A stretch of DNA of 24,000 bases from Halolamina pelagica (GCF_900115675.1 NZ_FOXI01000003.1:234767-258766); one strand, 5' to 3'; positions 1,875 through 21,848 are shown, counted from the stretch's first letter. Notes: generated by a model from the sequence alone, not told the origin. Numbers and translations: made by a program.

Positions 1875-1892
1875 GTTGATGGCATCTTCAGC
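1875..1892 (-). repeat. Motif copy E1: GCTGA-AG-ATGCCATCAAC (gene-strand reading)
   Basis: Read directly from the sequence. It lies 28 nt downstream of the PLD::SNF2 stop codon (1921-1923). Confidence 0.8.
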
Positions 1893-1920
1893 ACCATTCT
1901 AAGTCACATCCCTGGTCTGA

Positions 1921-4900
1921 CTACGTAGTATCGAACGTCACCTGTGACATCAGCCCGGGTCGGTCGTTCTGATCGTCTTGATCTTCCTCGGGAGCCACAA
2001 TCATCCAACAGACCAACTTCACCTCGTCTTCCTCAATCGGTGGGAGTGGATCAGGAGCCTCGAACGGCTGTAGCCCCAATTCCTCTACCTTGTCGACCAG
2101 CTCCCGTGACTTTTCGATAGGGCCGAGAGACTCGTCCTCGTAGATTTCTCGAAGCTCACGTTCGTACTTGCGACCCCACGGAGCCTCTACAGCCTCCACA
2201 GTCTCTTGAAGCTCGTCCTGGGTCATATCATCCGGCCAGTGGTCACGGAGATGTTGGCCCACCTCACGGAACAGTCGGCGGATGTCAGGCTGGACGTTCA
2301 ACGGGTCCGTTTGCTCTTGCCACTGACGATAGATGTCCTCCTGTGCCGTCTCCCACGCTTCGTAGATTTGGTCTCGCATTCCATCTGGGAGAGCCCGTTC
2401 AGTATCACGAGAGCATTCGATGCGCTTCAGACAGGTCAGAGTGTCCTGAACCAGTTCGTCGTCCCCATCCATCTCGTGTGGGACGAACCGCATGAAGACC
2501 TCGTCCCCGACCCGAGCACAGAAGAAATAGCCCGGGTCTTCACCGCGGAATCCAGACCCAGCGGCCCACGGAAGTGACGTGATCTGATCCTCACGGTCCT
2601 CCAGTCCCTCGCGGAGTTCCTGGCGATATTCCTCCCCGGAATACGCCGCCGCTTCAGCCCCGCCTTGTTCGTAGAAATCCGATTCCTCCCGCTGGATCGA
2701 GTCTATTTCTTCGACCTTCTCCGCGAAGTTCTGATTGAGGGTATCCATATCCGGTATAACGCCCCCACTCACGCCGATTGAGCGGGCCGCCTGGGTGAGT
2801 TTCTCCCGAACCCGGTGTTCGAGCTCAAGAAGATCGTCCAGTCGATCCTCGGGGAAGAACGAGAATGGATAGATTTCCGAGTGCGGGGAATTAACGCGGT
2901 CGATACGTCCGTTCCGCTGAACGACGCGCATCGGGTTCCACGGGAGGTCGTAGTTGATGACGTTTCGCGCCTCTTGGAGGTTGACCCCCTGACCCAGGAC
3001 GTCCGTCGCAATCAGAATATCAAACTCGTCCGTGGCATCCGGTGGGGCGTCACCTGAGTTCGGTGCAAATCCGTGGACAGCTTCCTCTCGTGTGACGCCG
3101 TACTTCGAGCCGTCGCCGGACACAGCGGCAATGCGGCCCTCGTAACACGACAAGTCTTCGTCCTCGCTGACGATGGACTCCAGGTACTCGTAAATCCAAT
3201 CGACGGTGTCCTCGTAGTAGGAGAACAATAGCACCTTGCGGTTCTGGCGGAAGGCCGCCTCAACATCCTCATCCGAAATCTGTCGCGCCTCAGCGTCCTC
3301 TCTCGCTGTCTCAACGATGTCCTCAAGCGTATCACGGAGCGCATAGAGTTTCTCGTCATCTTCTCGGCTGACCGCCTGGGCTCCGTCGCGCCATCGCTCC
3401 AGTATCTCGATGTCGTGCTCAAGATCAGCCCGAAGCTCGGCGGGATCAGCATCCGCCGCCGCCAGCGAGATATTTCCGTCGGTCGCGTCATCCAACAGCT
3501 CCTCCATCCCTTCATCGCTGTCCGTCTCAACCCACTCATCAATCGCATTCGTCTCCGGGAAGTAGCCCTCGTCCATAAGTTGGAGCGCGATGCGATTTTG
3601 CGAGATCATCCCGTCGAGGGTGTTCTTGAAAGCGTAGCTTGACGACTCGAACCGTTTCAGGAGCCCCGTCCGCAACAGCCCGACCAAGGAAAGTTCAGAT
3701 GCGTCCTCCTCGCCCTCTAAGTAGTAGGACGGTCGGTAACGGGCCAGCGTGAGCTCAGCTTCGTCCCTGTCCCCAGCCGCCAGCCCTTCCGCGACGTCGA
3801 GGAAATAGTCGTCACCAAACGTCTCTGTGAACGTGTAGTCGACACGCTTGGGCTTCGGATCCGGGAAATTAATCCGCACTTCGCCGCCGTCGCCATCAGG
3901 CATCGTCGCGTTCTCATAGTGGTTCTTGATGAACCGCCGAGTCCGGCGTACCGTCGTCTGGTCGAGAATGTCAAACAGCATATCTGGACTGAGATCCGAC
4001 GGGTCCTCCGCCTGGGCTTGCTTGAACTGGTCTCGAAGCGACCGGATACCCTCGTTGGCAAAGGTAGCGTCGTTCCGGATGAAATAATTCAGGAGGTAGT
4101 ACAGGTCCCACAGTGAGTTGTTGACCGGCGTGGCCGTGAGCATAACAACGTCCTTTGGCGGATCTCCCCGGAGGAGCGTCCGGAGTGCGTGGGATTGCTG
4201 GGTGCCAGGGTTGCGGAACGCATGAGCCTCGTCAATAACGACCAACTGATACTCGTCGACGGGAAGACTGAGATTGTTGGCGTCCCCACCGAGTTGGCTG
4301 TCGTTCCGGAGTTCAGCGTAGGATACCGTCTCAAATTGCACACCCCACTCGGCTGGCTTCTGTGTCCACATCCCGTCCCTGAGATACGCCGGTGCGACGA
4401 CGAGTGCACGCTGTCGGTTCTCCTGGACGTACTGTTCGAGGAGCTTGCCCCCGATATACGTCTTCCCGAGTCCGACCTCATCGGCAATGATGACGCCGTT
4501 GTGCTTGTCGAGGAACCGATTTGCTCTCCTGACGCTGTCCTGTTGGAAATTGGTGAGGTTGATCGCACCCCCGTCGTCCTCTCGTTCCTCCTCCAGTTCA
4601 TCACCGTACCGTTCGTAGAGCACCCGGAGGTAGATTAGGTGTGGATCGTAGGGCTCGAATCGTTCCTCGTAGAGACTGGCGAGGTCGAACGGTTCGCTTT
4701 CTTCCCAGAGGTCTTCGAACCAGTCGTTGATGCGTTCGGTTACGTGAGGGTCGTAAGTGCCGAGGTTCAGCTCCAGATTCGAGTTCAGTCCCGCGCCGGT
4801 GAAGTTCGATGACCCAGCAATCGCTCCCTGGCTGTCCGAGAACAAGTATGCCTTCCCGTGGACGAAGCTATCCTCGTGGCGGCGCACCTCAACGCGGTCG

Positions 4901-5292
4901 CTCCGGAGGAAATCCACGAGTTCCTGAAGTCCTTGGTCGACATCCCGCGAGAAACCAAGCAAGTCTCGGTCACGTTCGAGATTCTGATCCAGCGTCTGGA
5001 GTGCTTCCTCGATACGCTTGCGTTCATACGCTTCCCCTCGTGGTTCCTCAGGTTGTCGCCAGCGTTCCTTGCCTTCCTGATCGGGTTGAGCCCCGATGAG
5101 GAGATGGACCTGATCGACGTGTTCCAGCCCCTCAGCGACTGAAAAGTACCCTCTTGGGTTGAAGTAGCCGGTGACAATGTCGAGGTTGGGGTCGTTAGCC
5201 AGCCGATCATCCAAGTCCGAGAGATAGGCGTTGATTGCGGCGGCAAGCGTATTGCCGTCTCGGTTGTCGACGACTTGCGGCTGTTCAGTCAT
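1921..5292 (-). CDS. PLD-family (HKD) nuclease domain fused to an SNF2/SF2 helicase-ATPase
   Basis: There is a single HKD motif, HGKAYLFSD...GSSNFT (nt ~4800-4860). The SNF2 motifs are DEVGLGKT (4459-4482), VVIDEAHAFRN (DEAH at 4219-4233), LTATPVNN, and DVLGQGVNLQ...NYDLPWNPMRVVQRNGRIDR. The ORF-track start at 5325 is GTG. I prefer the ATG at 5292-5290 (MTEQPQVV...), which overlaps the upstream methyltransferase stop as ATGACTGA, giving 1123 aa. Confidence 0.9.
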   Translation of the reverse strand: MTEQPQVVDNRDGNTLAAAINAYLSDLDDRLANDPNLDIVTGYFNPRGYFSVAEGLEHVDQVHLLIGAQPDQEGKERWRQPEEPRGEAYERKRIEEALQTLDQNLERDRDLLGFSRDVDQGLQELVDFLRSDRVEVRRHEDSFVHGKAYLFSDSQGAIAGSSNFTGAGLNSNLELNLGTYDPHVTERINDWFEDLWEESEPFDLASLYEERFEPYDPHLIYLRVLYERYGDELEEEREDDGGAINLTNFQQDSVRRANRFLDKHNGVIIADEVGLGKTYIGGKLLEQYVQENRQRALVVAPAYLRDGMWTQKPAEWGVQFETVSYAELRNDSQLGGDANNLSLPVDEYQLVVIDEAHAFRNPGTQQSHALRTLLRGDPPKDVVMLTATPVNNSLWDLYYLLNYFIRNDATFANEGIRSLRDQFKQAQAEDPSDLSPDMLFDILDQTTVRRTRRFIKNHYENATMPDGDGGEVRINFPDPKPKRVDYTFTETFGDDYFLDVAEGLAAGDRDEAELTLARYRPSYYLEGEEDASELSLVGLLRTGLLKRFESSSYAFKNTLDGMISQNRIALQLMDEGYFPETNAIDEWVETDSDEGMEELLDDATDGNISLAAADADPAELRADLEHDIEILERWRDGAQAVSREDDEKLYALRDTLEDIVETAREDAEARQISDEDVEAAFRQNRKVLLFSYYEDTVDWIYEYLESIVSEDEDLSCYEGRIAAVSGDGSKYGVTREEAVHGFAPNSGDAPPDATDEFDILIATDVLGQGVNLQEARNVINYDLPWNPMRVVQRNGRIDRVNSPHSEIYPFSFFPEDRLDDLLELEHRVREKLTQAARSIGVSGGVIPDMDTLNQNFAEKVEEIDSIQREESDFYEQGGAEAAAYSGEEYRQELREGLEDREDQITSLPWAAGSGFRGEDPGYFFCARVGDEVFMRFVPHEMDGDDELVQDTLTCLKRIECSRDTERALPDGMRDQIYEAWETAQEDIYRQWQEQTDPLNVQPDIRRLFREVGQHLRDHWPDDMTQDELQETVEAVEAPWGRKYERELREIYEDESLGPIEKSRELVDKVEELGLQPFEAPDPLPPIEEDEVKLVCWMIVAPEEDQDDQNDRPGLMSQVTFDTT

Positions 5293-8200
5293 CGTTTCTG
5301 GTGCCAGCCGCTTGTTCTTCCTCACGGTCGGTGTGATCGAGGTCCAGTCTATCCGCCCAACTCGCGTAGTAATCGAGAACGCGTTCTAATCGTTCCTCAT
5401 AATCCCATCCGTTATGGAAGGTCTCAAAGATGACCTCAACGTGCTCGCGAGTCAGCCCATAGAGGTGTGCGACTACAGCATCCAGCTCGTAGATTTTCTC
5501 CTGTTTCGTTTCTTCGTCAAGTGGGCCGTATTCGACATCAACTGTATCCGCCCAGTCCTCGTAACGATCATCGACGGCGGCAAGTCGGCCGGAGAGTTCA
5601 GTAACACGTTGGCGGAGCTCATCATTGCGCCCTGGGCGAGGGACCGGGAGGGCATTTAGGATATGATATTTCAGGTGTGTCTCAACGAACCTTCGGACAT
5701 ACCAATCGAATGGAATTGAACTCATTATACCAAGTAGATACGCTTCATCTCTCTCATCCCCACTGGGCCAGATGAAATATGGTGCCATCTCCACTAAGAA
5801 TACCTCTGGCGGGAGGAGTGAGGGTATACATGTTCTTGTATCTGTACTTCGGGCTACATCTCGGAAGGTAAGTCGAGGTTCAAAACAGGAAAGCGTATTC
5901 CTGTCATTCACCCATTCTTCCGGCATATCAGAGAATGGAGAGCGGGATCCAGCGTATTGATATGAGTTTTCTCTTTTCTCCTGTACGTAATCGATCATAA
6001 CATCTGGATCCGCCCACCCGTACCTAACACCTGTATCCGGCTCCCAAATATTGAATGACCCTCCTTTGAAAATTGGCCAATAACTATCAGCGGGATCGTC
6101 AGTGAAATGCATCAGTTGGGTGCCATCGTCTTTTTTCTTATCTTGAGTTGAGTGGAGCTCGGTGTTTGGAACAACATTCCACTCACCATCGGAATCCAGA
6201 CGTGGATGCCGCGCCATTACTCCAAACACTTCTCCTGTTTCTGGGACAGCGGGTAATAGAGGGAAAGAAGAACTATCTGTCCAGTGTTTTGCCCGGGATT
6301 GGTCGAAGTAGTGAGGCTCCTCATTCACACCTTTCTCGAAGGCCTCTATGCTCGGAAATGGCCCTCTAAGCGGTAGCGGCGTATCATCTGAAGGCGTTTC
6401 CTTCTTGAAACTAGTAAGGGCGATTGTATATTGTGGATGGACTTCAGAGAATATCCAATTTTGATTATTAACTAAGAACGTGATATCTTTCACAACTGAC
6501 TCTTCGAGGATTTTCTTCCTGAATTGCTCTGTTGCGGGGCCAACAAACGCACTTCTCGGTAGAACTACGCCGACATGTCCCTTCTTGGAAACGAGATGCC
6601 AAAACCGCCAACAAAACGCCACATACATATCTGGATCGCCACCGCCGATGCCTGGATAAGGACCCTCAGTAAGCATCTTAGCACGTTTCTCCTCCTCTAA
6701 TTTCTCGCTTTTCAGCTCCTCTACGAGATCTGGGCGCTCACTTTCGAGTTCATCAATACGCTCCTCGCGTTTAGTTGAGGAAAGACCACGGAGTCCGGGG
6801 TAATGCCTTGCCCAAAACTCGTGCCTCTCCAGCTTTGCTTTTTCCCATGGCGGGTTTCCAACAACAACATCAAATCCTGGGTTTTCGGTGTCAAAAACTT
6901 CAGGAAATGCTGTGGGAAAATGGAGTGGACTCGTCGACTCCAGTACTTTTTGAGCTTGCTTATAAGCATCCGTTTTTCTAATCTGTATACTGGTGTCCGA
7001 AACCGGTTCAGTATCTATACTTTCATCAATTCGGGATGCGGCCAGTACATCGAATCGTGCCCTAACTTCCTCTAATTTCTCCTCGATCTCGGCCCGGGTT
7101 TCTCGGGCTTCTTGCACCTGTTCAGCACTGGCGTCAGCAAAGTTTCCGAGACGAGAAATGTCTTCTCGAATCTCGTTCATTACACTCTGACCTCCAGCGA
7201 ACATACCCAGTGAGGATTGTTCTACGTCAAGAATATCTGTCACTTCTCCCAGTGTGCCAATTCCCGACAGTGAATCACCAGTCACGAGATTGTAATCGAG
7301 GAAGGTCAACGGGAGACCGGGGACAAACGTGTGAACCCAAATTGAAAGACGAGCCAACTCTGTGGCAAGTGGATTTAGGTCCGCACCGTAAACACAGCGT
7401 CGAGCAACCTGACGGCGGAGAAGTTGCCCTCGCTCGATATTGGGGGTGTATTCCTCATTTTCAAATGCATCTTCCGCGGCATCTCTGAGATTGTCGAGTT
7501 CTTTTTCGACTGGCGTGAGTTGGTTTTCAGTAAGGTATGCTCTGAGTCTCGTTTCAATCCGATCCACCGCTCCAACCAGGAAATGCCCCGACCCCATTGC
7601 GATGTCCGAGACACGAATATCGAAGAAAGCCTCCGCGGCGGCGTTCTCACCCTCCTCCTCACGTAGCCGGTCGATGCGTTCAATGTGATCGTCAAGTGCG
7701 GGCTCAAGCGAATTATCCAAGAGATGCTCGACGAACCTCGTCTTTGTGTAGTAGGTGCCAGTAGCCTTCCGCTCACCGGACTGGCCGTGGAGGTATACTT
7801 CACCCTTCTCAACTACAACGTTCTCATCGTCTTCCCCGAGCGTTTGCTGACCACCACTATCGACCGGCTTGTAGTGTCCTTTCTCGTCAGTCGTCAACGG
7901 CTGTTCCGCAACAGAGAGCTCTGATTCGAGGAGACCCTCGTAGATGACACCGAACTCTCGGACGCCAATGTTCCGGAAATCGACCGGTCCTTGGTACCCA
8001 TCTTCAGTCTCGTCAATGAGTAATCGGAATAGCACTGGGCCAAACTCGGCGTTGTTCAATCGGGTGTCCGAAAGCCGCGCACCCGCTTCGGAGACATCCT
8101 CATCTTCGGAGAGAATCCGCCCCTCGTAGGCGGGGAGTCCCATTTCCTCGTGACCGTGGTGGATAGCACGCGAGAGCCGCATCACATCGTCCCAGTGGTC

Positions 8201-9412
8201 GTAGAATGAGTCGTCAAACTCTCCGCCCTCCTGAACGAATTCGTGGAGATCGTGGGCCTTCTGTTTCAGCGAGTGTTGGTCGTAGCGACCGTTCCGCCGG
8301 CGGGGAAGAAACTCCTCGTCTTCGGCGTAAGCGATGAACAAGAGACGGTAGAGGAGAAAGAGCGCCATCTCGTAAGTCTGGTCGAGTTCCTCTTTCGTCG
8401 GGTCGTTGATGTCGCGTGCCTCGGCGATAGCCTCGGCGAGGTCGGGAATAACGTCGTCGTAGATGCGATTCCGGAGACGCCCACCGAGGTCAGCGGCGTA
8501 CTCCTTCGAGTCCTCCATAATCTGATGAAGGGCACCGTCGTCGCGGAGGGCATTCGCCGAGAACAACAGCCAGAGGTACGCCGCCTTCTCGTCGGCCAGG
8601 AGGTTCGTGTTCACCTCGACGTACGTGTCAGTCCGACCGCGTGAGCCGAAGCCAGCCTCCGGGTTCGTCGTATAGAGACGAAGCGTGTCACCGCTACTCC
8701 CGATGACGTAGTCCAGATTTCGCTTATCGGCCTCATTGAGTGCGTACGCTACCGGCGACTTGTTGACGAACCGATCTTGTTTGCGGTCGAATGACTCGTC
8801 TTCCTGGAGGAACATAGCCACGGCCCGCTCGTGGCCGTCACTGGTATCCTTGAGGACGTAGCTCTGGTCGGTAAGCCGGTCTATCTCGTAATTCAGCCCC
8901 TTCACCAAGTCTCGCGGGTCGTCCGTGAGTGCCTGTTGAGCGCGTTCAGTAGCATCGTCCCAATCGTCGCGTTCGGGGACACCAACCCTGAGTTCGTGCG
9001 TCGATAAGAGGCCTTGGTTCCGTAGGCCCGCAAGTTCCTCGTCAAGCTGTGGGAGCGTGTTAGAAAGGAACGACTGAGCGACGTGTCGATCTGGCTTTTT
9101 CAGAGCGGCGTCACAGACGCGCTCAGCTTGGCCGCGGTCGACGTCACGAAACACGGGCGGGTCTTCGCCGCTTGGCCCACACAGGCCGACCTTGTCATCG
9201 TATAGCGCGACCACGAGAATCGGGTTGACCCGACCGCCTCGCCGGTCGGTGTAGGTTCGCTGGAGGAAATCCTTGTTCGGCCGTTCGCCGTGATCGACGA
9301 CGACAATCTCTAACGCACTGGATCCTTCGCCTTGATAGAACTCAAATTCGGCGTCCGTCCTATCGTAAGACCAAGGACGACCATCGCGAGATTGGAGGAA
9401 ACCTGAAGACAT
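5285..9412 (-). CDS. Large gamma-class N6-adenine DNA methyltransferase, Eco57I/PglX-like (Type IIG/ISP-like MTase-TRD protein)
   Basis: SAM-binding motif I is DIAMGSGHFLVG (nt 7577-7606). Catalytic motif IV is VVVGNPPW (NPPW at 6845-6856). About 520 aa follow motif IV, leaving room for a TRD. The helical block LFLLYRLLFIAYAEDEEFLP and the C-terminal LNALPVP...YELDAVVAHLYGLTREHVEVI are typical of this family. The ORF-track start at 9484 is GTG. I prefer the ATG at 9412 (MSSGFLQSRDG...), which has a TATA box about 27 nt upstream, giving 1375 aa. No nuclease motif is visible in the N-terminal ~600 aa. Confidence 0.88.
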   Translation of the reverse strand: MSSGFLQSRDGRPWSYDRTDAEFEFYQGEGSSALEIVVVDHGERPNKDFLQRTYTDRRGGRVNPILVVALYDDKVGLCGPSGEDPPVFRDVDRGQAERVCDAALKKPDRHVAQSFLSNTLPQLDEELAGLRNQGLLSTHELRVGVPERDDWDDATERAQQALTDDPRDLVKGLNYEIDRLTDQSYVLKDTSDGHERAVAMFLQEDESFDRKQDRFVNKSPVAYALNEADKRNLDYVIGSSGDTLRLYTTNPEAGFGSRGRTDTYVEVNTNLLADEKAAYLWLLFSANALRDDGALHQIMEDSKEYAADLGGRLRNRIYDDVIPDLAEAIAEARDINDPTKEELDQTYEMALFLLYRLLFIAYAEDEEFLPRRRNGRYDQHSLKQKAHDLHEFVQEGGEFDDSFYDHWDDVMRLSRAIHHGHEEMGLPAYEGRILSEDEDVSEAGARLSDTRLNNAEFGPVLFRLLIDETEDGYQGPVDFRNIGVREFGVIYEGLLESELSVAEQPLTTDEKGHYKPVDSGGQQTLGEDDENVVVEKGEVYLHGQSGERKATGTYYTKTRFVEHLLDNSLEPALDDHIERIDRLREEEGENAAAEAFFDIRVSDIAMGSGHFLVGAVDRIETRLRAYLTENQLTPVEKELDNLRDAAEDAFENEEYTPNIERGQLLRRQVARRCVYGADLNPLATELARLSIWVHTFVPGLPLTFLDYNLVTGDSLSGIGTLGEVTDILDVEQSSLGMFAGGQSVMNEIREDISRLGNFADASAEQVQEARETRAEIEEKLEEVRARFDVLAASRIDESIDTEPVSDTSIQIRKTDAYKQAQKVLESTSPLHFPTAFPEVFDTENPGFDVVVGNPPWEKAKLERHEFWARHYPGLRGLSSTKREERIDELESERPDLVEELKSEKLEEEKRAKMLTEGPYPGIGGGDPDMYVAFCWRFWHLVSKKGHVGVVLPRSAFVGPATEQFRKKILEESVVKDITFLVNNQNWIFSEVHPQYTIALTSFKKETPSDDTPLPLRGPFPSIEAFEKGVNEEPHYFDQSRAKHWTDSSSFPLLPAVPETGEVFGVMARHPRLDSDGEWNVVPNTELHSTQDKKKDDGTQLMHFTDDPADSYWPIFKGGSFNIWEPDTGVRYGWADPDVMIDYVQEKRENSYQYAGSRSPFSDMPEEWVNDRNTLSCFEPRLTFRDVARSTDTRTCIPSLLPPEVFLVEMAPYFIWPSGDERDEAYLLGIMSSIPFDWYVRRFVETHLKYHILNALPVPRPGRNDELRQRVTELSGRLAAVDDRYEDWADTVDVEYGPLDEETKQEKIYELDAVVAHLYGLTREHVEVIFETFHNGWDYEERLERVLDYYASWADRLDLDHTDREEEQAAGTRNDD

Positions 9413-9437
9413 GTTTACACCAGTTGAGTGGACGGCT

Positions 9438-9444
9438 GATATAG
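9438..9444 (-). promoter_or_regulatory. TATA box (CTATATC on the gene strand) for the methyltransferase/helicase transcription unit
   Basis: CTATATC is centred about 29 nt upstream of the ATG at 9412. This fits a leaderless mRNA and supports 9412 over the GTG at 9484 as the start. Confidence 0.45.
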
Positions 9445-9695
9445 TTTGGTGGTGAAACTCTAAGGCGGAGAGGCAATTGACCACATTTGTCGGGTGGGGA
9501 AAACCGATGAGAATCTTCCCTTGGTGACATCCTGATAGTCATCATTCATTCAATATATCGGTGATAGCCTATTCACCCTCTACTCTGGCGTACATACAGT
9601 CACCACTCTGTTGCCTGTACTTACGGTATCAGCTTACAGGTCCGAACAAGTAGCTATCGGAAAGCACTCTACAATTCCTTTCATTCGGTATACCT

Positions 9696-10295
9696 CTAGA
9701 TGACAGTATGAATTTGTGAAGTGATGTTTGCGAAAGCCTCAGAAGCGGCATCAAGATCAGTAACCCCTGTACAAAGTAACTTCCCACTCGCAAATACGAG
9801 AATAATATGATCGGAGCCACGGTACACCAACGCGGGGAACTGTTCCGGCTCGTATTCCGCGGTATTCATCCCCAACTCAAGAGTAAGAAGTTCCAGCGGT
9901 ATTGGTGAGCCGAAGTCGGTCGTAGCTACGATGTTGTTGATCTCGGTCGCTGGTTTGTAATCGAACTTCAGAATATCACGCATCACTCCATTTATTTGCT
10001 CAGTTTTATTGTTGAATTCTTCTATTGAGCCACATCCTGTAATAGAACAACGGCCAGATCGATAGAATGCGACATATGTATTATCAGGCGGAAACCGAGT
10101 TTGAAGCCAGTGGTTTTGCGATGGTTCGTACGTTACACTGGTGACATCCTCGCGTTCAGAGAACGTTTCCGCTAAGGCCGCAAGATCCAGCTCTTGCCGG
10201 TATGTGATCATACCTGAGACGTTGGCGATCTTCAGGTCAACCACTATTCTGTCATAACCATTGGTGGTAATAAGAGAAGCGGGTTTAGTAGTCAC
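9696..10295 (-). CDS. tbp: Divergent TATA-box-binding protein (TBP) paralog
   Basis: A two-repeat TBP architecture is recognisable. The second repeat is canonical: INNIVATTDFGSPIPLELLTLELGMNTAEYEPEQFPALVYRGSDHIILVFASGKLLCTGV. The first repeat is degenerate: KIANVSGMITYRQELDLAALAETF...TYEPSQNHWLQTRFPPDNTYVAFYRSGRCSITGC. The start codon is GTG (10295-10293), and the first in-frame ATG would truncate repeat 1. The gene is AT-rich (33% GC in the 9961-10020 sample). Confidence 0.85.
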   Translation of the reverse strand: MTTKPASLITTNGYDRIVVDLKIANVSGMITYRQELDLAALAETFSEREDVTSVTYEPSQNHWLQTRFPPDNTYVAFYRSGRCSITGCGSIEEFNNKTEQINGVMRDILKFDYKPATEINNIVATTDFGSPIPLELLTLELGMNTAEYEPEQFPALVYRGSDHIILVFASGKLLCTGVTDLDAASEAFANITSQIHTVI

Positions 10296-10379
10296 CTGGT
10301 ATGAGCTACTGGCTACTAATCTACTGAGTTACGGCATCAGTGAAGCCCCATCATCCTGAGATCTCCACTCTTTTCTTCT

Positions 10380-10396
10380 GTTGATGGCATATCAGC
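10380..10396 (-). repeat. Motif copy E2: GCTGA-T-ATGCCATCAAC
   Basis: Read directly from the sequence. It lies 19 nt downstream of the phosphoesterase stop (10416). In this copy GGCATA (10386-10391) and TATGCC (10399-10404) can form a 6-bp hairpin that encloses TCAGCGG. Confidence 0.8.
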
Positions 10397-10415
10397 GGTA
10401 TGCCGTCGTTCCGTT

Positions 10416-11417: not shown

Positions 11418-11508
11418 ATCTAAAGAACCGCAACGGGACGTATCATCTTTCCGGAGAAGTTATTCGGGATCAGGCTTTCCTAAATAGAGATACTAACGTT
11501 AAGCCGTG

Positions 11509-11524
11509 TTTGATGGCATTCAGC
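11509..11524 (-). repeat. Motif copy E3: GCTGA-ATGCCATCAAA
   Basis: Read directly from the sequence. It lies 7 nt downstream of the lipoprotein/operon stop (11532). Confidence 0.75.
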
Positions 11525-11531
11525 TCAGAGA

Positions 11532-12035
11532 TTAGCTATCCATCATCTCTCGAAATTCTTGCTTCAGTTCCTCGGCTCGCTCAAACCGGTCGTCACTCGT
11601 TGCCAACGCTTCTTCGGAGGCGACAGGGTCGTCGTTGACAGCCCGCTCGTAGGCCGCACTGTATCGCCACGTCGAAGCTCTCCGAATGAAGCTATAGTAC
11701 TGTCCGAGTGTGCTGAACAACTCCCATGTCTCGGTGCCGTTTTCGTAGCTTTCGAGCTCGCTGTCAAGAGCTTCCTCAAGCGACTCGTAACTGTTCGTGG
11801 CTCGCTCGAAGTGCATCATTGCCCGCGAATAGTCGCTCGCCTCAAGGGCGTCGTTGCCCGACACGTACTGATCAACCGCCTCTTGTTCAGTCGACTCGTG
11901 TTCCTCCAGCCACGCGTTCACAACCTCGTCGGGACTTTGCTCATCCGTTGTTTCCGATGTACAGCCCGCAAACAGGATTGTTGAGCCGGCTACGGCCAGT
12001 ACGTTACGCCGCGTTCGACCAGAGAGATCAGTCAT
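11532..12035 (-). CDS. Secreted Tat-type lipoprotein, helical, unknown function
   Basis: From the ATG at 12035 the protein begins MTDLSGRTRRNVLAVAGSTILFAGC. This gives a twin-arginine motif, a hydrophobic stretch and a lipobox Cys. The ORF-track start at 12110 is GTG and adds a non-signal-like extension. The ATG overlaps the upstream stop as ATGACTGA. It is the last gene of the six-gene operon. Confidence 0.7.
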   Translation of the reverse strand: MTDLSGRTRRNVLAVAGSTILFAGCTSETTDEQSPDEVVNAWLEEHESTEQEAVDQYVSGNDALEASDYSRAMMHFERATNSYESLEEALDSELESYENGTETWELFSTLGQYYSFIRRASTWRYSAAYERAVNDDPVASEEALATSDDRFERAEELKQEFREMMDS

Positions 12036-12390
12036 CAGCAACCCTCCTGTTGGCGGCGTCGACGAACCCCTGTCTCCTGAGGTTCTTGCCCCACGTCGAG
12101 AGGAACTCACTCAGGTCCAGACCTGATTCGTCGTGCTCGTGGGCCAGCGGGTGCTGTGTGTACCTAACCGCCCGCCACTCGTCGTCGTCGATCATGAACA
12201 CAACTTCGGGATCGCTCATCAGGTCGCCACGTTGCGTGTAGTAGTGCCCGACACTGAGACGACCATCCCCGATCTTCTCAATAGTCAAGTCTTCGAATCC
12301 GTCCACCGTAATCGTGTAGTTCTCGTTGACGTTCATCTCCGCAACCGATGGAACGCCCAGATTGCCCAGCATCTCCGAGATGGCGTCCAT
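12028..12390 (-). CDS. Hypothetical protein (120 aa)
   Basis: Acidic ORF in the operon. The ORF-track start at 12393 is TTG, and the next codon is ATG (12390-12388), sharing 1 nt with the upstream TGA. It contains LSVGHYYTQRGDLMSDPEVVF. I vaguely associate this motif with small proteins of plasmids and integrative elements, but I cannot name a family with confidence. Confidence 0.65.
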   Translation of the reverse strand: MDAISEMLGNLGVPSVAEMNVNENYTITVDGFEDLTIEKIGDGRLSVGHYYTQRGDLMSDPEVVFMIDDDEWRAVRYTQHPLAHEHDESGLDLSEFLSTWGKNLRRQGFVDAANRRVADD

Positions 12391-12803
12391 CAATCCAACA
12401 CCTCCGCGCCTTCAGCGAATCGTTCAATCTCGCTCTTGCTCAGTGTCCAGCCGTTCTCTGGGAGTTCCGCGACAACGTTGCGTTTGAACCGTTGGTAGTG
12501 AGTTACCGCGAAGTGATCGTTGAATGCGTGAGCGAGAAGCGCAATAGCGAGTTGGGCGGGACCGCTACCCCCGTAGTTCCACTCGAAACCAGCCGGGCTC
12601 GCCGACAGTAAGTCGTACCGACAGTCCAACGGCTCGCCATCGACAGTGACAGTACATTCTTCACCAACTGGGGCGGTCCTGTCTCGCTGGCCTCGATAAA
12701 TCGATTGACTGTCGTGGTCGCTTAACGTATCCTCGGCTGACAGGCCAGATGAAGTCGCCGAAGAGGTCTTTCTTCGGGTCAACCCCTGGGTATCGGGGCT
12801 CAT
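12390..12803 (-). CDS. Hypothetical protein with FEWNYGGSGPAQLAIALL motif (DUF6166-like, tentative)
   Basis: 137-aa ORF whose ATG at 12803 overlaps the upstream stop (ATGA). The GYGGSGPAQLA(L/I)ALL block followed by Y..FK..V...LP...W.L matches my memory of an uncharacterised phage/mobile-element domain family. There is an S/T-rich disordered N-terminus. Confidence 0.65.
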   Translation of the reverse strand: MSPDTQGLTRRKTSSATSSGLSAEDTLSDHDSQSIYRGQRDRTAPVGEECTVTVDGEPLDCRYDLLSASPAGFEWNYGGSGPAQLAIALLAHAFNDHFAVTHYQRFKRNVVAELPENGWTLSKSEIERFAEGAEVLD

Positions 12804-13183
12804 CGGGCCACCTCCACTATCCGGTCCAGGGCATCCCGAAGCTCGTGGGCGGTATCCGTGAGTTCTTGAGCCTGAGTTTCAAGCTCGGCGGCATTCGATT
12901 CGAGATTGTCCGCCGCCTCGATGAGCTCTGTCTCAAGCGTCTCGACGTCAACCTGACCGACCTCTATCCGTACACGTCGGATGTGCTTACACTCGGAAAC
13001 AGACTCACGGTACTCGAAGTCCGGACACGTACACGCGGGTTCTCGAAGGTCGACGGTATACTCGGAACCACTCTGAGTTGTGACAGAGAACAGTGATTGT
13101 GCCTCCTCGATGACGGTCATATGTTCCGTGGCGGCCCGGAGAGTCCGTGGCCCGATGTCAGGCTGGACTGATTCCGAAGACAT
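12800..13183 (-). CDS. SWIM-type zinc-finger protein with C-terminal coiled coil
   Basis: It carries the CxCx(n)CxH signature, CTCPDFEYRESVSECKHI. The C-terminal heptad-like acidic helix is ETLETELIEAADNLESNAAELETQAQELTDTAHELRDALD. The ATG at 13183 shares 1 nt with the upstream TGA. Confidence 0.8.
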   Translation of the reverse strand: MSSESVQPDIGPRTLRAATEHMTVIEEAQSLFSVTTQSGSEYTVDLREPACTCPDFEYRESVSECKHIRRVRIEVGQVDVETLETELIEAADNLESNAAELETQAQELTDTAHELRDALDRIVEVAR

Positions 13184-13677
13184 CAGACATCACCTCTGTC
13201 GTCCTGGACGGGCACCCAGTAGGGCTCGTTGCTGTCGAACTTCTCGACCCGCTTGAAGTGAACATCCTCGTCGGCGAGATCGATTGCTTGCTTCGCCGCC
13301 GACAGCGTCAGGGTGCCGGTTCGGAACGTGTAGCCTTTTTCCAGTACGCTGGGGTCAGTCGCCATTCGTACGTCGACGACCGGCCCGAACCGTCGCTTGT
13401 TCACACAGCCAGCCCGGGAACTCCACGGCCCTTCGAGCGTGACCTGTTCACCGTCGACGGTCGTAATCTCGAACGACCGACCGGAGAAGCCGCCGTCATT
13501 GCCGTCACCGCTCCAGGCGAAGTATTCGACGTACCCGTTATCGATGGCTGTCCACAGACTGTCTTCGTGCTCGAACCGGAGCTCAGACCGTTCTGGAGTT
13601 TCGTCAACGAGGACTTCCAGCCGGGGATCATTTCCGACGTCTTCCCGCCAGTCAATCTGGGCGTCGAGAATGTTCAT
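13183..13677 (-). CDS. Hypothetical protein (164 aa)
   Basis: Acidic ORF with a true ATG (13677-13675) overlapping the upstream stop (ATGA). No family recognised. Confidence 0.65.
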   Translation of the reverse strand: MNILDAQIDWREDVGNDPRLEVLVDETPERSELRFEHEDSLWTAIDNGYVEYFAWSGDGNDGGFSGRSFEITTVDGEQVTLEGPWSSRAGCVNKRRFGPVVDVRMATDPSVLEKGYTFRTGTLTLSAAKQAIDLADEDVHFKRVEKFDSNEPYWVPVQDDRGDV

Positions 13678-13916
13678 CGCCGATCACCGTCACACTCGAC
13701 TGGAAGATCACGCTTGCTCAGAACCTCGACGCCGCACTCGATACAGCGGAGGTATCGCTCCAAGTACTCGGTCTGACACTCATGTCGGCGCGAAGGGTCA
13801 GGATGCTTTCCAGGTACCCACTCGCTTTTGTCGATCACGAGGTGAGCGTCGACGTGTCTCGCTTCAGGGTGGTTCGGTGCCGATGCGCTTATTCCGTAGC
13901 TGTCGCTATCTGACAT
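13674..13916 (-). CDS. Small Cys/His-containing (zinc-ribbon-like) protein, first gene of the six-gene operon
   Basis: The HEC...CIECG arrangement (RRHECQTEYLERYLRCIECGVEV) is present. The ORF-track start at 13979 is TTG. I prefer the ATG at 13916 (MSDSDSYGISA..., 80 aa). The TTG start cannot be excluded, because a TATATC box at ~14019-14026 would place a TSS near 13995. Confidence 0.5.
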   Translation of the reverse strand: MSDSDSYGISASAPNHPEARHVDAHLVIDKSEWVPGKHPDPSRRHECQTEYLERYLRCIECGVEVLSKRDLPVECDGDRR

Positions 13917-13946
13917 TGGGTTCTCGTCTCCACGGGTAACCCACAG

Positions 13947-13968
13947 AATCGGTGCTACTACACCGATT
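13947..13968 (-). promoter_or_regulatory. Perfect 8-bp inverted repeat (AATCGGTG-N6-CACCGATT) in the leader/promoter-proximal region of the six-gene operon
   Basis: Read directly from the sequence: 13947-13954 aatcggtg, 13961-13968 caccgatt. It lies 31-52 nt upstream of the ATG at 13916. Confidence 0.4.
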
Positions 13969-14253
13969 TTTCTCCTCAAACCAGTTGTTTGAAGCTGTAG
14001 CTGGGGTTTTCCGTGTTTAGATATACGCGGGGATAGGTGTTAAGTGTTTACTTTCTGTAACTAATGAATCAAGATACTACGGCCAGTTTTTCTTTTATGT
14101 CCTTGTTTGATGGTATATCTGAGATGTGTGAGTAACTCGGACTGTATTCCAAACCGTGATACGCGTTAACACTAATGCTCTATGTGGCAAGTCGCCTTAC
14201 TAATTCGTTAATATGCCACCTTGCCAAGTATAGAGATATTGTTAACTCACCAC

Positions 14254-14272
14254 ATAAAATAGTCCGAAGGAC
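14254..14272 (-). terminator. Weak candidate terminator for the RHH-helicase operon (short hairpin + TATTTTAT)
   Basis: On the gene strand, GTCCTTCGGAC (4-bp stem) is followed by TATTTTAT, about 65 nt after the helicase stop. Archaeal termination uses oligo-T tracts, and this is only a T4 run. Confidence 0.3.
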
Positions 14273-14291
14273 CGTTTCCCGGGCACTCAGG

Positions 14292-14307
14292 GTTGATGGC
14301 ATTCAGC
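14292..14307 (-). repeat. Motif copy E4: GCTGA-ATGCCATCAAC
   Basis: Read directly from the sequence. It lies 31 nt downstream of the helicase stop (14339). Confidence 0.8.
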
Positions 14308-14338
14308 GGTTGGTCTGTTGATGACTCCGGATTTGTGG

Positions 14339-16195
14339 TTAGTTTTCGGGGTGGATTCGAAAATGGCCGTGGGGATTGAGGGTGTCGATACCTGTATCGA
14401 ACCACTCTTTCTTCCCGTTGAATCCGGTTATGCTGTCGACAGCATTCAGGTCCCGAAGGGTGTAGAGATGCTTCCGGACAGTACGTTCACCGTTACCGGT
14501 TTTCTCTTGAATTTCAGCCTTGGAGACTGATTCGTTGTTCTTGAGGACTCTCTTTGTTTCCTCGATCTTGTCACTCCACTTCTGTGGTCGCTTACTCACG
14601 ACTTTACGGGGAATCCAGTCGGGAATGCACGCTGTGTAGACGTAGATGTCCGCCCCAGCGATGTCGTCCTTCCGACCAGCACGGAAGATGGCCTGTGCGA
14701 CTTCGCTGTGAACCATATGGTGGTAGTACCGGTCGCCAATCTCGCCGTAGCTCTTGTCAACACCGTACTTGCCGTTGCTTTCAATGGCGTAGCCGTCCAA
14801 GGCCGCGAGCTGTTGGATGGCACGGTTGCCAGGGTGGAGCGAGCCGAGTACCGCAAGGAGCGTTTCATCCTCGAGTTCGCTGTGGGAACGCACTTTCCCG
14901 AGGTGAAGTTCTTTGTTGTCCACGTATTTGCCGTGGATGATGCTTTTCTTAGCCTGGAGACTTGTGATAGTCGGGACCATCCGGTCGTGGTGCTCACTAA
15001 TTTCGTGGAGGTAGCCGTTGAACTTCCATCGAGAGACATTTTTCGCCTTCGCTGAGAACGCCGTTGTTTCCTCGGTAAGTTGGGTGATCTTGTAGCCGAG
15101 GGTATCACGAACGAACTCAGCACGTTCTTCGTCGGTCATAAAGTCCTCGTCGTAGTCGAGCTCACGTCCGAGGCGACCCTCCCAGATTTCCGGGGTTGGT
15201 GTTCCGTCCATAGCGATGGCCGCCCACGCACTCGTGAGGGCTTCGGGAGGGTTCCGGATGGTGACCGATGGTTCGTCCCTGTCTTTGCCCTCGTCGTGGA
15301 GGAGTACCTTCTTTCCAATCTCCGTACGGCGAAGCCCTGTGTCCGTCACTTCATCGTTCTCGACGGGCTTACCGTTGAGCACAGCCAGCGTGAGGAGTGG
15401 AGAATCGGCACGACCGCCCTGATTCGAGTAGCCGATGTCCGGATCGACCAGGAGCTCACGATCCATAATGATCTCAATCCATTCCTCTCGCTGTTCATCG
15501 TCGGCACGGATCAGGTCATTCTTTGACCCAGCGTCGATGTCCGAGTGGTGCTCAAGGAACGTAGAGATAGCCGCCGTGTAGACGCTCTGGCTGACAGTGT
15601 ACTCGAAGGCCCCGCCAGCATCCTCGTCGAACAGCACAGCACGTTCTTCGACATAGCTCAAGATGTTGGCGTGGACTGGGTGACCGATTAGGAGCTCGTA
15701 GTCCTCAGCGTCGAAGTCGCACGCGGCCGAGTATTCACACTTGCCATCGTGCTGGCACGGAATCTTGTCGCCCATAAACTCGTGGATGATGCTCGGGGGA
15801 ACGAGCTGGCGTTGAAGTTCCGCCATCAGTTCGGACCACTTCAGGTCCATCCCGGAGACTTCCTTGCCGTCGTGCTCACCCTTGGCGGTAGGGCACCAAC
15901 GATTGAAGACGGGAAGCCGCTTGATATTTTCAGGTTCGAGACCGGCCTCAATGGCGTACTCCTCGATCTGTTCACGGGTGTCGATTTGCTTCGTGAACAC
16001 GGTGAGGGGATAGTCGACGTCGTCGTCAGCCGGGAGGTTGCCCGCACTCCACGTCTTGCCGAGCGTCATCAGAATAGGAAGGAGGTGATTTCCGCCTTGG
16101 TTGATGGCATCCTTGATGGTGTTGTAAGACTTGTTTCGCCACTCCTGAAGGGCGTCCACTTTGGCGGAGGTTGGGGTCTGTTCAATTCTCGACAT
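14339..16195 (-). CDS. P-loop NTPase / SF2-helicase-like protein with a four-Cys cluster and C-terminal winged-HTH; probable element replication/maintenance protein
   Basis: Walker A-like LMTLGKTW and Walker B-like AVLFDEDAGG are present. Four Cys lie between them (RWCPTAKGEH ... IPCQHDGKCEYSAACDF), an arrangement like the FeS/Zn insertion of XPD/DinG-type helicases. There is a motif VI-like VAQAIFRAGRKDD. The C-terminal HTH is SKAEIQEKTGNGERTVRKHLYTLRDLNAV. The ATG at 16195 lies 6 nt after the RHH gene stop. Confidence 0.75.
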   Translation of the reverse strand: MSRIEQTPTSAKVDALQEWRNKSYNTIKDAINQGGNHLLPILMTLGKTWSAGNLPADDDVDYPLTVFTKQIDTREQIEEYAIEAGLEPENIKRLPVFNRWCPTAKGEHDGKEVSGMDLKWSELMAELQRQLVPPSIIHEFMGDKIPCQHDGKCEYSAACDFDAEDYELLIGHPVHANILSYVEERAVLFDEDAGGAFEYTVSQSVYTAAISTFLEHHSDIDAGSKNDLIRADDEQREEWIEIIMDRELLVDPDIGYSNQGGRADSPLLTLAVLNGKPVENDEVTDTGLRRTEIGKKVLLHDEGKDRDEPSVTIRNPPEALTSAWAAIAMDGTPTPEIWEGRLGRELDYDEDFMTDEERAEFVRDTLGYKITQLTEETTAFSAKAKNVSRWKFNGYLHEISEHHDRMVPTITSLQAKKSIIHGKYVDNKELHLGKVRSHSELEDETLLAVLGSLHPGNRAIQQLAALDGYAIESNGKYGVDKSYGEIGDRYYHHMVHSEVAQAIFRAGRKDDIAGADIYVYTACIPDWIPRKVVSKRPQKWSDKIEETKRVLKNNESVSKAEIQEKTGNGERTVRKHLYTLRDLNAVDSITGFNGKKEWFDTGIDTLNPHGHFRIHPEN

Positions 16196-16201
16196 CCAGA
16201 G

Positions 16202-16501
16202 TTACTCGTCCAGCTCAGTAAGCTTCCGTTCGCGTTCGACGTGATAGCCTATAGCGTCATCAGCGAGGTGAGAGAGCTTCGCGTCAGTCCGTTCGAGGAA
16301 CATCTGGTGAATATCGTCGATGACGATGGTGGTTCGGACATAGTCATTTTCTGGACTTCGCCGTGCGTCTTCTGACGGCATCTCTCGTTCATCGTTGTTG
16401 ATTGCCTCAATGTGTTGTCGGACGGCTCGGGAGAGCGACAAGGCACTTCCGTCTATGAATTTTTTGTGCGAAGTTTGGATGTTGATTGTCTTCTGGATCA
16501 T
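16202..16501 (-). CDS. Ribbon-helix-helix (CopG/Arc/MetJ-like) DNA-binding protein, possibly tandem RHH
   Basis: 99 aa with a true ATG. Strand-helix-helix patterns occur at KTINIQTSHKKFIDGSALSLSRAVRQHIEAI and again at RTTIVIDDIHQMFLERTDAKLSHLADDAIGYHV. A perfect palindrome lies directly upstream of its start. Confidence 0.65.
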   Translation of the reverse strand: MIQKTINIQTSHKKFIDGSALSLSRAVRQHIEAINNDEREMPSEDARRSPENDYVRTTIVIDDIHQMFLERTDAKLSHLADDAIGYHVERERKLTELDE

Positions 16502-16506
16502 CTTCC

Positions 16507-16524
16507 TTGCATAACATTATGCAA
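16507..16524. promoter_or_regulatory. Perfect palindrome TTGCATAA-CA-TTATGCAA; candidate operator of the RHH-helicase operon
   Basis: The 8-bp arms are perfectly complementary with a 2-nt spacer. The palindrome ends 5 nt upstream of the RHH ATG (16501), between a T-rich TATA-like stretch (CTTTTTGA on the gene strand) and the start codon. Confidence 0.55.
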
Positions 16525-16802
16525 TACCCGTTCAAAAAGTTTCTGTATGGTGATATATCAGGTTACTGGTTTCTCTGAGTTACTTTCATCGAGATACAAA
16601 CCACCTGTTCGAGGATATACGAGTAGTTCGATACCACTCAATACAAAACCAGAACTGACGATTCTGGGATATATATCGTCTATACAATGACAGACGGCGT
16701 ACGGCTGGATATGTCGAATAATCGATTCAGATCGTAGAACATTGGTAATGAGATGTACGTAAGTTTGTGGTCTCGTCGCCACCAATCAGCTCACTAATCC
16801 GA

Positions 16803-16819
16803 GCTGACATGCCATCACC
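16803..16819 (+). repeat. Motif copy E5 (inverted orientation): GCTGA-C-ATGCCATCACC
   Basis: Read directly from the plus strand, inside the 16502-16952 AT-rich intergenic region. It is the only copy in the opposite orientation. Confidence 0.7.
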
Positions 16820-16952
16820 CGTATCGTCCAGTACCACGATAGCGGCGAACCTCCCTACATTTTGAGTTTCAGCGGGTCTTTGTAAAATTGGTCGGGGGGT
16901 GTCAAAGGCCTTTACCGGGGCGTTTAGGGGCGTCGAAGTTTGGGGGACAACG

Positions 16953-21673: not shown

Positions 21674-21776
21674 GACGGCGCGGCTGTCGGGTTGTAGCGT
21701 TTTCGTACGTTATTGGACATCGTTTGGCTCTCCTGAGAAGGGCGAAATCAGCCGAGAGAGCCTGTAAGGCCGCTGA

Positions 21777-21848
21777 AGCCTAGGCCGGAATTTGAATCCG
21801 GGGTCTCGTCCTTACCAAGGACGCGCTTTACCGCTAAGCTACCCAGGC
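21777..21848 (-). tRNA. tRNA-Thr (anticodon GGU), 72 nt, no encoded CCA
   Basis: Hand-folded cloverleaf on the minus strand. The acceptor is GCCTGGG/CCTAGGC (one G-U pair). The D arm is GCTT-AGCGGTA-AAGC. The anticodon arm is CGTCC-TTGGTAA-GGACG, with GGT at positions 34-36. The variable loop is AGACC. The T arm is CCGGA-TTCAAAT-TCCGG. The discriminator is T. Confidence 0.9.

Follow-up and report, generated by a model that had tools for sequence, protein, structure and literature searches.

A recurrent bipartite word at the module boundaries of tRNA-integrated haloarchaeal islands, a candidate protein recognition site and exchange seam

What is a short, asymmetric sequence doing between otherwise unrelated blocks of one haloarchaeal island? 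The question is raised by a 24,000-nucleotide (nt) stretch of Halolamina pelagica DNA (GCF_900115675.1, NZ_FOXI01000003.1:234767-258766), called the window below; positions are counted from its first letter, and negative positions lie on the leftward extension of the contig. An earlier note on this DNA had described a motif, GCTGA followed after a short spacer by a conserved second part, just after the stop codons of four transcription units, and had suggested a signal for RNA 3'-end formation or processing, a binding site for an island-encoded regulator, or a recombination or module-junction site. The motif, here called the word, belongs to a family of tRNA-integrating, plasmid-like haloarchaeal islands. 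It marks module boundaries, with copies at three positions (P1, P2 and P3) and one copy between most cargo blocks out to the island end. We tentatively read the word, from comparison of the sequences, as a recognition site for an island-encoded protein at module starts or boundaries that would double as a seam for module exchange; we favour this reading without being persuaded of it.

The island is integrated in a tRNA-Thr gene (21777-21848), beside a tyrosine integrase. One of its proteins matches a Halolamina protein at 100% identity. A 17-nt att repeat, TCTCGTCCTTACCAAGG, has one copy at 21804 and a second at window -4695, which gives an island of ~26.5 kb, and the GC content of the island (0.41-0.58) contrasts with that of the host DNA (0.70-0.72). 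The pattern GCTGA-N0-3-ATGCCATCA occurs five times in the window (1877-1892(-), 10382-10396(-), 11511-11524(-), 14294-14307(-) and 16803-16817(+)), against 0 expected from 100 dinucleotide-preserving shuffles, and the coordinates and strands previously assigned to these five copies (E1 to E5, Table 1) were all borne out. With up to one mismatch, the 11-mer ATGCCATCAAC has seven matches in the window compared with 0.32 expected, and no shuffle reached seven. The earlier conclusion that the repeat is not due to chance therefore holds, but its count of three exact copies does not, as there are four, the match at 16100-16110 (E6) among them. The partial copy at 14104-14116(-), which forms part of E8, is real (position weight matrix score of 14.7). 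A one-mismatch copy at 1641-1651(+) within the NA37 gene (E7) had been overlooked. The leftward extension (locus L121) contributes two further full copies. Of the nine exact ATGCCATCA copies in the island, seven lie within the intergenic 11% of the DNA (binomial P = 6e-6); the 26.5-kb island has eight intergenic copies, and the sequence flanking the copies is unrelated beyond about 20 nt. The consensus in this island, CCGCTSA-N0-2-ATGCCATCA(A/C)C, is asymmetric and spans 18-20 bp. The measured distances from the preceding stop codons to E1-E4 agree with the 7-31 nt reported before, with the flanking genes as named (Table 1), and the copies do separate blocks of differing GC content (NA37, 0.45; SNF2, 0.58; methylase, 0.53; TBP, 0.46; phosphoesterase, 0.51; six-gene operon, 0.58; helicase, 0.56), E1 sitting at the step from 0.58 to 0.45.

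Some copies appear to owe their presence to coding sequence. E6 is probably a coding coincidence and is not conserved in the DNA of L126 or L127. E7 is kept as coding sequence in the NA37 gene of L134, where the island's own word differs, and is therefore probably not a functional copy. The GTGCCATCACC copy at 21573 is kept in L135-L137 as coding sequence and may or may not be a functional copy. E4 is common to L126 and absent in L127. As a separate observation, E7 (1638-1657 +) and E1 (1869-1888 -) are 85% complementary over 20 nt and make up an inverted pair that encloses the NA37 promoter and the first 30 codons; similar convergent pairs occur in the extended window (-1431/-1025) and in L126 (2579/2680).

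Fourteen related islands were found by way of the helicase and of the six-gene operon (loci L122-L132 from the contigs of helicase homologues and two collection scans; L134-L137 from the last operon gene). A genome scan with the single helicase protein gave no match, and a scan with the helicase alignment gave one locus only, in Natrarchaeobius. No helicase relative was found in viral contigs, and scanning these for the word returned single-copy matches only, at the chance level for 16 specified bases. A k-mer scan of whole loci was swamped by acidic-codon repeats, and a scan of the non-coding DNA only was used instead. As the most repeated 9-mer (one mismatch allowed), the word ranked top in this island; related but different words ranked top in L129 and L122. 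A listing of all copies showed that each island has its own, internally uniform version of the word. The version ATGCCATCA(A/C) is shared by the window, L126, L127, L135, L136 and L137; L134 has ATGCCATCCG; L125 and L124/L130 have CTGCTATCA; L129, L131 and L132 have CTGCCAACAG or TGCCAACA; L128 has ATGCCACCAG; and L122/L123 have the nearly palindromic TGCTGACAG. The upstream half of the word reads CCGC..A/C across islands. In the copy after the operon of L134, 4/5 core positions are changed relative to L135 and L137 (CAAAC to CCGTC) with both flanks conserved, which suggests a changed specificity of the reader or gene conversion among the copies. The positions of the copies are conserved down to 36% helicase identity.

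Three positions recur across the islands. P1 lies upstream of the replication module, and its copy is inverted in every case. P2 separates the replication module from the operon. In nine islands its core is 185-195 nt away from the operon ATG, and about 107 nt away from the leader box AGCTACAGCT. The ~60 nt that separate the P2 copy from a TATA-like box diverge in sequence, and the word forms the first conserved base of the operon module. P3 lies 7-14 nt past the last operon stop, in the window as well as in L135, L137 and, with its own variant, L134. In L135, the homologue of E2 (20/24 nt identical, degenerate) immediately precedes the methylase; it occupies a divergent intergenic region and does not trail a stop codon. 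Given this homologue and the placement of P2, a location 60-140 nt ahead of module promoters describes the copies better, and their closeness to the preceding stop codon can be ascribed to the short intergenic gaps.

The orientation of the copies follows a simple rule. When the helicase or the operon is set on the plus strand, every intergenic copy to the left of the replication module reads on the minus strand and every one to its right on the plus strand, so that they point outward from the core; the one exception is convergent and sits at the extreme end of contig L126. Copies that are antisense to both neighbours (L130 -5320, L129 -2292, L129 -8505 and -4487 in the extended window) obey the rule too, and 11/11 copies at non-homologous positions point outward (P about 5e-4). 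At least ten copies follow a co-oriented gene; the P1 copy of every island, -4487, L130 -5320 and L129 -2292/-8505 do not. The flip in orientation falls within 16110-16803 of the window, beside an AT-rich, conserved non-coding stretch (GC content of 0.41).

Homology between islands begins or ends at the copies: one flank is 84-94% identical, and the opposite flank shows no identity. The block common to L137 (85%) stops at 16804, the outer edge of E5, and the block common to L135 begins at 16822, the opposite edge. The operon block common to L137 begins at 14119, at E8, and the operon blocks of L135, L137 and L134 stop at 11488-11497, 12-21 nt past E3. The block common to L136 (90%) begins at -4485, in the end copy, on the inner side of which the window has 2.8 kb of extra cargo. 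The global identity of the 150-nt flanks was compared against a background of 45-58%. At P1, the window shares 71-74% with L127, L135 and L136 in the 5' flank and 37-58% in the 3' flank; with L137 the values are 57% and 84%, respectively. E5 is thus a mosaic breakpoint, with an inner flank like that of L127, L135 and L136 and an outer flank like that of L137. At P2, the 5' and 3' flanks are 41-45% and 93-94% identical between L127 and L135 or L136, and 30% and 92% identical between the window and L137. The end copy of the window compared with that of L136 gave 58% and 90%, and P3 gave 86-91% and 39-69% in all pairs.

Across all island pairs, 23 clustered block ends were located at most 15 nt from a copy, compared with 10.9±3.2 expected when the same number of sites was placed randomly in intergenic DNA, and 0/2000 randomisations reached 23. 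The ATGCCATCA group, where DNA similarity suffices, accounts for 21/23 of these block ends. The suggestion of a recombination or module-junction site, together with the breakpoints that a comparison of related islands was expected to reveal at the motif, is therefore supported by comparison, though the action of a dedicated recombinase would be a further assumption. In L125, L130 and L129, the helicase and the operon are separated by differing cargo, which is enclosed by two direct copies; in the window and L127, the same interval holds one copy and is free of cargo. The boundaries at P1, P2, P3 and the end copy fall at the word or within 12 nt of it and have no single fixed position: the crossover point coincides with the 5' edge in the case of P2, falls between the two halves of the end copy, and lies about 12 nt beyond the core in the case of P3. 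Some inserts are one-sided and have a copy on one flank only, namely the 2.8-kb insert relative to L136 and the TBP gene relative to L135. The TBP gene (9696-10295 -) lies between E2 and the methylase; in L135 (12105-12232) an E2-like site is found 64 nt from the methylase homology. As L135 has the E2-like site and no TBP, this gene looks like an insertion without a copy on its far side.

Table 1. Coordinates of the word copies and of associated features (window positions unless another locus is named)
Feature	Coordinates	Strand	Sequence or context
E1	1875..1892	(-)	GCTGA-AG-ATGCCATCAAC; 28 nt past SNF2/PLD stop, 133 nt ahead of NA37 start
E2	10380..10396	(-)	GCTGA-T-ATGCCATCAAC; 19 nt past phosphoesterase stop, 84 nt ahead of TBP open reading frame
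E3 (position P3)	11509..11524	(-)	GCTGA-ATGCCATCAAA; 7 nt past stop of last operon gene
E4	14292..14307	(-)	GCTGA-ATGCCATCAAC; 31 nt past helicase stop, upstream of inverted-repeat element
E5 (position P1)	16803..16819	(+)	GCTGA-C-ATGCCATCACC; inverted, upstream of replication module
E6	16100..16110	(-)	Exact 11-mer within helicase gene, codons K-D-A-I-N
E7	1641..1651	(+)	ATGCCATCACC; one-mismatch 11-mer copy, antisense within NA37 gene
E8 (position P2)	14104..14122	(-)	CTCAGAT-ATACCATCAAAC; degenerate, between inverted-repeat element and operon promoter
Copy in integrase gene	21573..21583	(+)	GTGCCATCACC; antisense in 5' part of gene, 231 nt from att core
Copy in leftward extension	about -1035..-1020		GCTGA-ATGCCATCACC; 10 nt past stop of 565-aa gene
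End copy	about -4497..-4482		GCTCG-ATGCCATCAAT; ~200 nt from left att end of island
Helicase	14339..16195	(-)	Replication-module gene; 618 aa, XPD/DinG fold, C-terminal winged helix
Nested inverted-repeat element	14154..14255	(-)	GTTAAC..TGGCAAG..CTTGCCA..GTTAAC; after helicase gene, bracketed by E4 and E8
Operon promoter-like box (about 14036-14053) and conserved structured leader	13917..14056	(-)	
Six-gene operon	11532..13979	(-)	Includes DUF6166, DUF6908 and SWIM-like gene; core common to all long related loci
Conserved non-coding stretch	16654..16802	(-)	Just inside P1; GC content 0.41
Tyrosine integrase (20423-21673 (-)) and tRNA-Thr (21777-21848)	20423..21848	(-)	
Replacement replication genes	L134 4954-6984; L135 5266-7773; L137 5575-7305		

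On the reading that we prefer, a sequence-specific DNA-binding protein from the conserved part of the island, other than the helicase, would bind duplex DNA at each copy and would couple the units starting 60-140 nt downstream to one regulator. The most likely effect would be repression, or insulation of each block from read-through during the integrated state. Short-homology recombination at the word would replace the replication module and add or swap defence cargo. The variants are concerted and private, the spacing to the operon promoter is constrained, and the copies keep to intergenic DNA and lack structure; these four features all point to a site that is read by a protein. The word could act as a seam because it is the only sequence common to the unrelated blocks and must be kept for regulation. 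Regulation might then be the selected function and short-homology recombination the route of exchange, a division of roles that we put forward as a fairly open bet.

The replication module bears on which protein could be the reader. Homologues of the helicase are rare (only 16 among 5.8 billion amino acid (aa) sequences of proteins); the protein has four invariant cysteines, and its predicted fold resembles XPD, DinG and CasDinG (Foldseek E 5e-11 to 2e-7). It was classified by this fold search only, as sequence searches of Pfam, PHROGs, NCBIfam and PDB assigned no function to it or to the operon proteins. The helicase slot is filled by unrelated genes in L135/L136 (835 aa), L137 (D5_N/DUF5906, 576 aa) and L134 (676 aa). 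L134-L137 retain the operon at 80-88% identity, and L135-L137 also retain the integrase (91-95% nucleotide identity) and carry ATGCCATCA at P1, P2 and P3. The replication module thus appears to be swappable, and since islands with three other replication genes share the word, the latter follows the conserved core and not the XPD-like helicase. The non-coding stretch just inside P1 is common to L127, L135 and L136 regardless of the replication gene. The inverted-repeat element, in contrast, occurs only with the XPD-like helicase; 11/25 of its predicted pairs are kept through two-sided changes (seven islands), and it is a possible origin or structured RNA.

The earlier proposal of a binding site for an island regulator is supported indirectly, by the concerted variants and the fixed spacing at P2 (185-195 nt). 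The specific binders it had named are not supported: the word is unchanged where unrelated replication genes replace the winged helix-turn-helix helicase, and no gene for a ribbon-helix-helix protein or for TBP is among those called in L134-L137, all of which have the word or a close variant of it. The winged helix of the helicase was rejected as a reader also on its own sequence, as L129, L131 and L132 share TGCCAACA despite different recognition helices and the word persists without the helicase. The first operon protein was rejected because the distribution of its two types does not match that of the word variants, and the 309-aa protein encoded beside P1 because it is acidic and has no distinguishing change in L134.

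Several observations weigh against the preferred reading. None of the three candidate readers tested tracks the variants. Some module boundaries have no copy (SNF2/methylase, TBP/methylase, and the left boundary of NA37 relative to L134, at 1804), and a conserved word beside a conserved gene would by itself end BLAST blocks without recombination, so that the junctions are unambiguous only at P1, P2 and the end copy, where one side is highly identical and the other carries different genes. The distance from cargo copies to the downstream start codons is not fixed (84-139 nt), and for P1 and a minimum of four further copies the neighbouring genes run antisense or a downstream gene is lacking. 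Neither this nor the strict outward polarity is accounted for by simple operator logic.

These last two features are handled better by the main rival explanation, an integron-like one that we consider unlikely and nevertheless take seriously. An island recombinase, either the tyrosine integrase or an unrecognised operon protein, would recombine copies of the word; circular cassettes consisting of word, promoter and genes would be captured or released on both arms, and the inverted P1/P2 pair would protect the replication module from deletion. Such a process would account for the outward polarity of all intergenic copies but the one at the end of L126, antisense ones and the 11 independent extra copies (P about 5e-4) included, for the variable inserts between direct copies in L125, L130 and L129, and for cargo blocks of differing GC content that each end with a copy 7-31 nt past a stop. 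The sharp junctions, the variants concerted within each island, and a spacer between the halves that varies exactly where the end-copy junction falls are also in keeping with it. It does not sit well with crossovers that have no fixed point, with the one-sided copies at the 2.8-kb insert and at TBP, or with multi-gene modules that have their own promoters, and a recombination site would need no constrained spacing to the operon promoter. Furthermore, the word has no dyad symmetry or hairpin of the kind used by tyrosine recombinases or IntI, the palindromic variant of L122 excepted, and no recombinase was recognised in the island besides the tRNA integrase. In sum, recombination of this kind is better than protein recognition on the polarity and the direct repeats and worse on the unfixed crossovers, the absent copies and the promoter spacing. 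Also unlikely in our judgement is an archaeal platform for cassette capture with a site architecture unrelated to that of integrons, in which a recombinase of the element would insert and excise promoter-bearing cargo, mostly for defence, on both arms. A conserved core consisting of the regulatory region, the swappable replication module and the operon would then be flanked by outward-pointing sites, with lineage-specific specificity; this arrangement, too, we regard as rather unlikely.

The polarity could also mean that the copies act as polar sites for replication or translocation (fork barriers, helicase loading or orienting sequences), with movement outward from an origin just inside P1 towards att. 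The orientation flips by the AT-rich stretch at 16110-16803, polarity persists where the orientation of transcription does not, and the element encodes a helicase of the XPD/DinG fold, a 5'-3' type. This is improbable, however, as the word is unchanged across three unrelated replacement replication genes; the copies number just 8-10 per 26 kb, are intergenic and lie near stops or promoters, unlike KOPS or Chi; and E4 and E8 flank the inverted-repeat element, the other candidate origin, yet share one orientation. The first suggestion of the earlier note, a signal for 3'-end formation, processing or stability in the 3' untranslated region of each unit, fared worse still and is very improbable. 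It had in its favour that five island copies lie 7-31 nt past a stop on the gene strand, that the same arrangement is found in L135, L137, L134 and L128, and that no oligo-T terminator adjoins E1-E3, as had been noted. However, P1, P2 and several other copies are not preceded by a gene in their own orientation, several sibling copies being antisense to both neighbours; the E2 homologue of L135 stands at a module start, in a divergent region ahead of a gene; the word at P2 goes with the module that follows it and not with the gene before it; and island-specific variation would require an island-specific RNA reader. No conserved structure was found either. Single-strand folds of six copies with their flanks gave z values of -0.37, +0.75, -0.25, +1.61, -2.75 and +1.12, the only structured case leaves the word unpaired, and no hairpin is common to the copies, which makes it more likely that the site is read as duplex DNA. 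The variant of L122 is palindromic and an exception to the lack of dyad symmetry. A terminator-like hairpin is found only at E4, 19 nt downstream of it, and none at E1-E3; an intrinsic or oligo-T terminator was rejected on this ground. A short coding function (stop-start, with MPST peptides) was also rejected, as the open reading frames encode 6-40 aa with no similarity after MPS, and in the variants of related islands CTG replaces ATG, while TGA is replaced by ACA, CAC or CTC. Absence of any function (chance, codon-driven sequence or ancestral intergenic duplication) would suit E6 and E7, which coding sequence explains; its probability is close to nil, as no copies are expected by chance, the flanks are unrelated beyond about 20 nt, the positions are conserved to 36% helicase identity and the variants are concerted within islands.

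Known systems offer partial parallels to protein recognition at dispersed sites. The stoperators of Cluster A mycobacteriophages, bound by a repressor of the L5 gp71 type, are dispersed, oriented and asymmetric sites that co-evolve with the repressor (PMC6550527, PMC9283540). They resemble the word in being short asymmetric sites spread across a mobile element, mostly in intergenic gaps and with one dominant orientation, in having one copy in the regulator or early-promoter region, and in a consensus that differs between related elements. They appear to be the nearest working analogue for dispersed oriented sites. The stoperator consensus tracks its own repressor, whereas here there are six concerted variants and no cognate protein was found among the candidates tested. 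Stoperators number 20-30, compared with 8-10 sites here, and the present element is archaeal, with a longer, bipartite word and a variable spacer. Unlike stoperators, the copies are oriented by their position relative to the core, and not by transcription, in at least five cases, and they coincide with mosaic breakpoints, which differs from reports for stoperators.

For the behaviour at junctions, the nearest analogue seems to be found in the modular theory of phage evolution, in which short conserved linker sequences lie between the exchangeable modules of lambdoid phages. There, as here, a short conserved sequence separates modules of different histories, with crossovers in or beside it. Unlike those linkers, the word is the same at all junctions of an island, is oriented, differs in a concerted manner between elements and keeps a spacing to a promoter. 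Integron attC/attI sites share with the word a location at the 3' end of cargo units, one orientation, an array beside a conserved platform that has a tyrosine recombinase, and cargo of mixed composition. However, attC forms an R''-L''/L'-R' hairpin that the word does not, and the core GTTRRRY does not fit (the complement of the word is GTTGATGGCAT, with GTTGATG on the plus strand, where the third R is T). Integron sites are specific to cassettes rather than uniform within an island, the units here are multi-gene and have promoters, the integrase targets a tRNA gene, and the core is flanked by arrays of opposite orientation. The sole recombinase found is a protein of the Phage_integrase family beside the tRNA-Thr att site. 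Arm-type sites of this integrase were rejected as an identity for the word; two copies do lie 208 and 231 nt from the att core, but at least six lie 5-16 kb away. Iterons and Rep operators resemble the word in that an asymmetric site of ~20 bp occurs near a candidate origin with an inverted copy upstream of a replication gene. Unlike tandem iterons, the copies are single, 0.2-8.5 kb apart over 26 kb, with no tandem family. Unlike Rep-binding sites, ATGCCATCA keeps the same positions with the 835-aa gene (L135/L136), the D5_N/DUF5906 gene (L137) and the XPD-like gene (window), and the word as a whole occurs with four unrelated replication genes.

A shallow literature search found no description of the element family or of the word, the pL6 plasmid paper held nothing comparable, and a literature search for a Sulfolobus plasmid recombination motif gave nothing. 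Archaeal defence-gene islands are highly mosaic, and we know of no mechanism for their assembly. Here, a lineage-private word lies at the seams of exchanged replication modules and defence cargo and is also tied by its spacing to the core promoter. If one protein reads it, that protein would provide a handle on the silencing and rebuilding of such islands, and the linker sequences that have long been postulated in the modular evolution of mobile elements would gain one of their few concrete cases. In practical terms, modules can be delimited by means of the word and its variants, with which haloarchaeal genomes and metagenomes can also be searched for further family members.

The genes of the island are arranged as follows. 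From the integrase, the order is GIY-YIG, FokI-like, a 309-aa gene, E5, a 99-aa gene, the helicase, E4, the inverted-repeat element, E8, the six-gene operon, E3, phosphoesterase, E2, TBP, an Eco57I-like methylase, PLD-SNF2, E1 and NA37; the leftward extension adds the 565-aa gene, a full copy, three more genes and the end copy near the att end. No Rfam family was found in the window beyond the tRNA. The operon leader comprises the TATA-like box, the box AGCTACAGCT and a hairpin (CCGGTG..CACCGG) directly ahead of the first gene. This first gene (13674-13916 (-); about 80 aa, CxxC..C) comes in two types so different that they can barely be aligned (22-26% identity; compared with L134 7830-8102 and L124 10435-10710). 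Homologues of the DUF6166 operon protein (12390-12803 -), of about 40% identity, occur on 95 haloarchaeal plasmid records, one of them on Halobacterium salinarum pHS1 near an ArdC-like gene. As such homologues are found on plasmid records and in almost no phage records, the core looks plasmid-like.

Beside P1, 16953-17882 (-) encodes a conserved acidic protein (275-309 aa across islands) with only weak PHROG matches; its signature, LQKSVRRSD..AA.AA.EL.RSGY, recalls the C-terminal domain of RarA/MgsA ATPases. The Eco57I-like methylase (5285-9484 -) is itself a mosaic, in which 6827-9456 is 83% identical to the methylase of L135 and the remainder is 67% identical or unalignable, with a change in GC content from about 0.60 to about 0.47; this may reflect a swap of the target-recognition part. 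In the sibling islands (L122 11915-19308, L125 1239-2015, L134 10744-17322 and L137 13254-19811), defence and DNA-modification genes dominate the cargo (QueF/TGT with PglZ, HamA, and type I restriction-modification with YgjP), which matches the PLD-SNF2/methylase, FokI-like and GIY-YIG genes of the window. Directly past the island end in L136 (11684-20256), a second integrase is followed by TrwB/TraG-like and DUF8128 genes, and this region looks like a second element, of conjugative type, in tandem.

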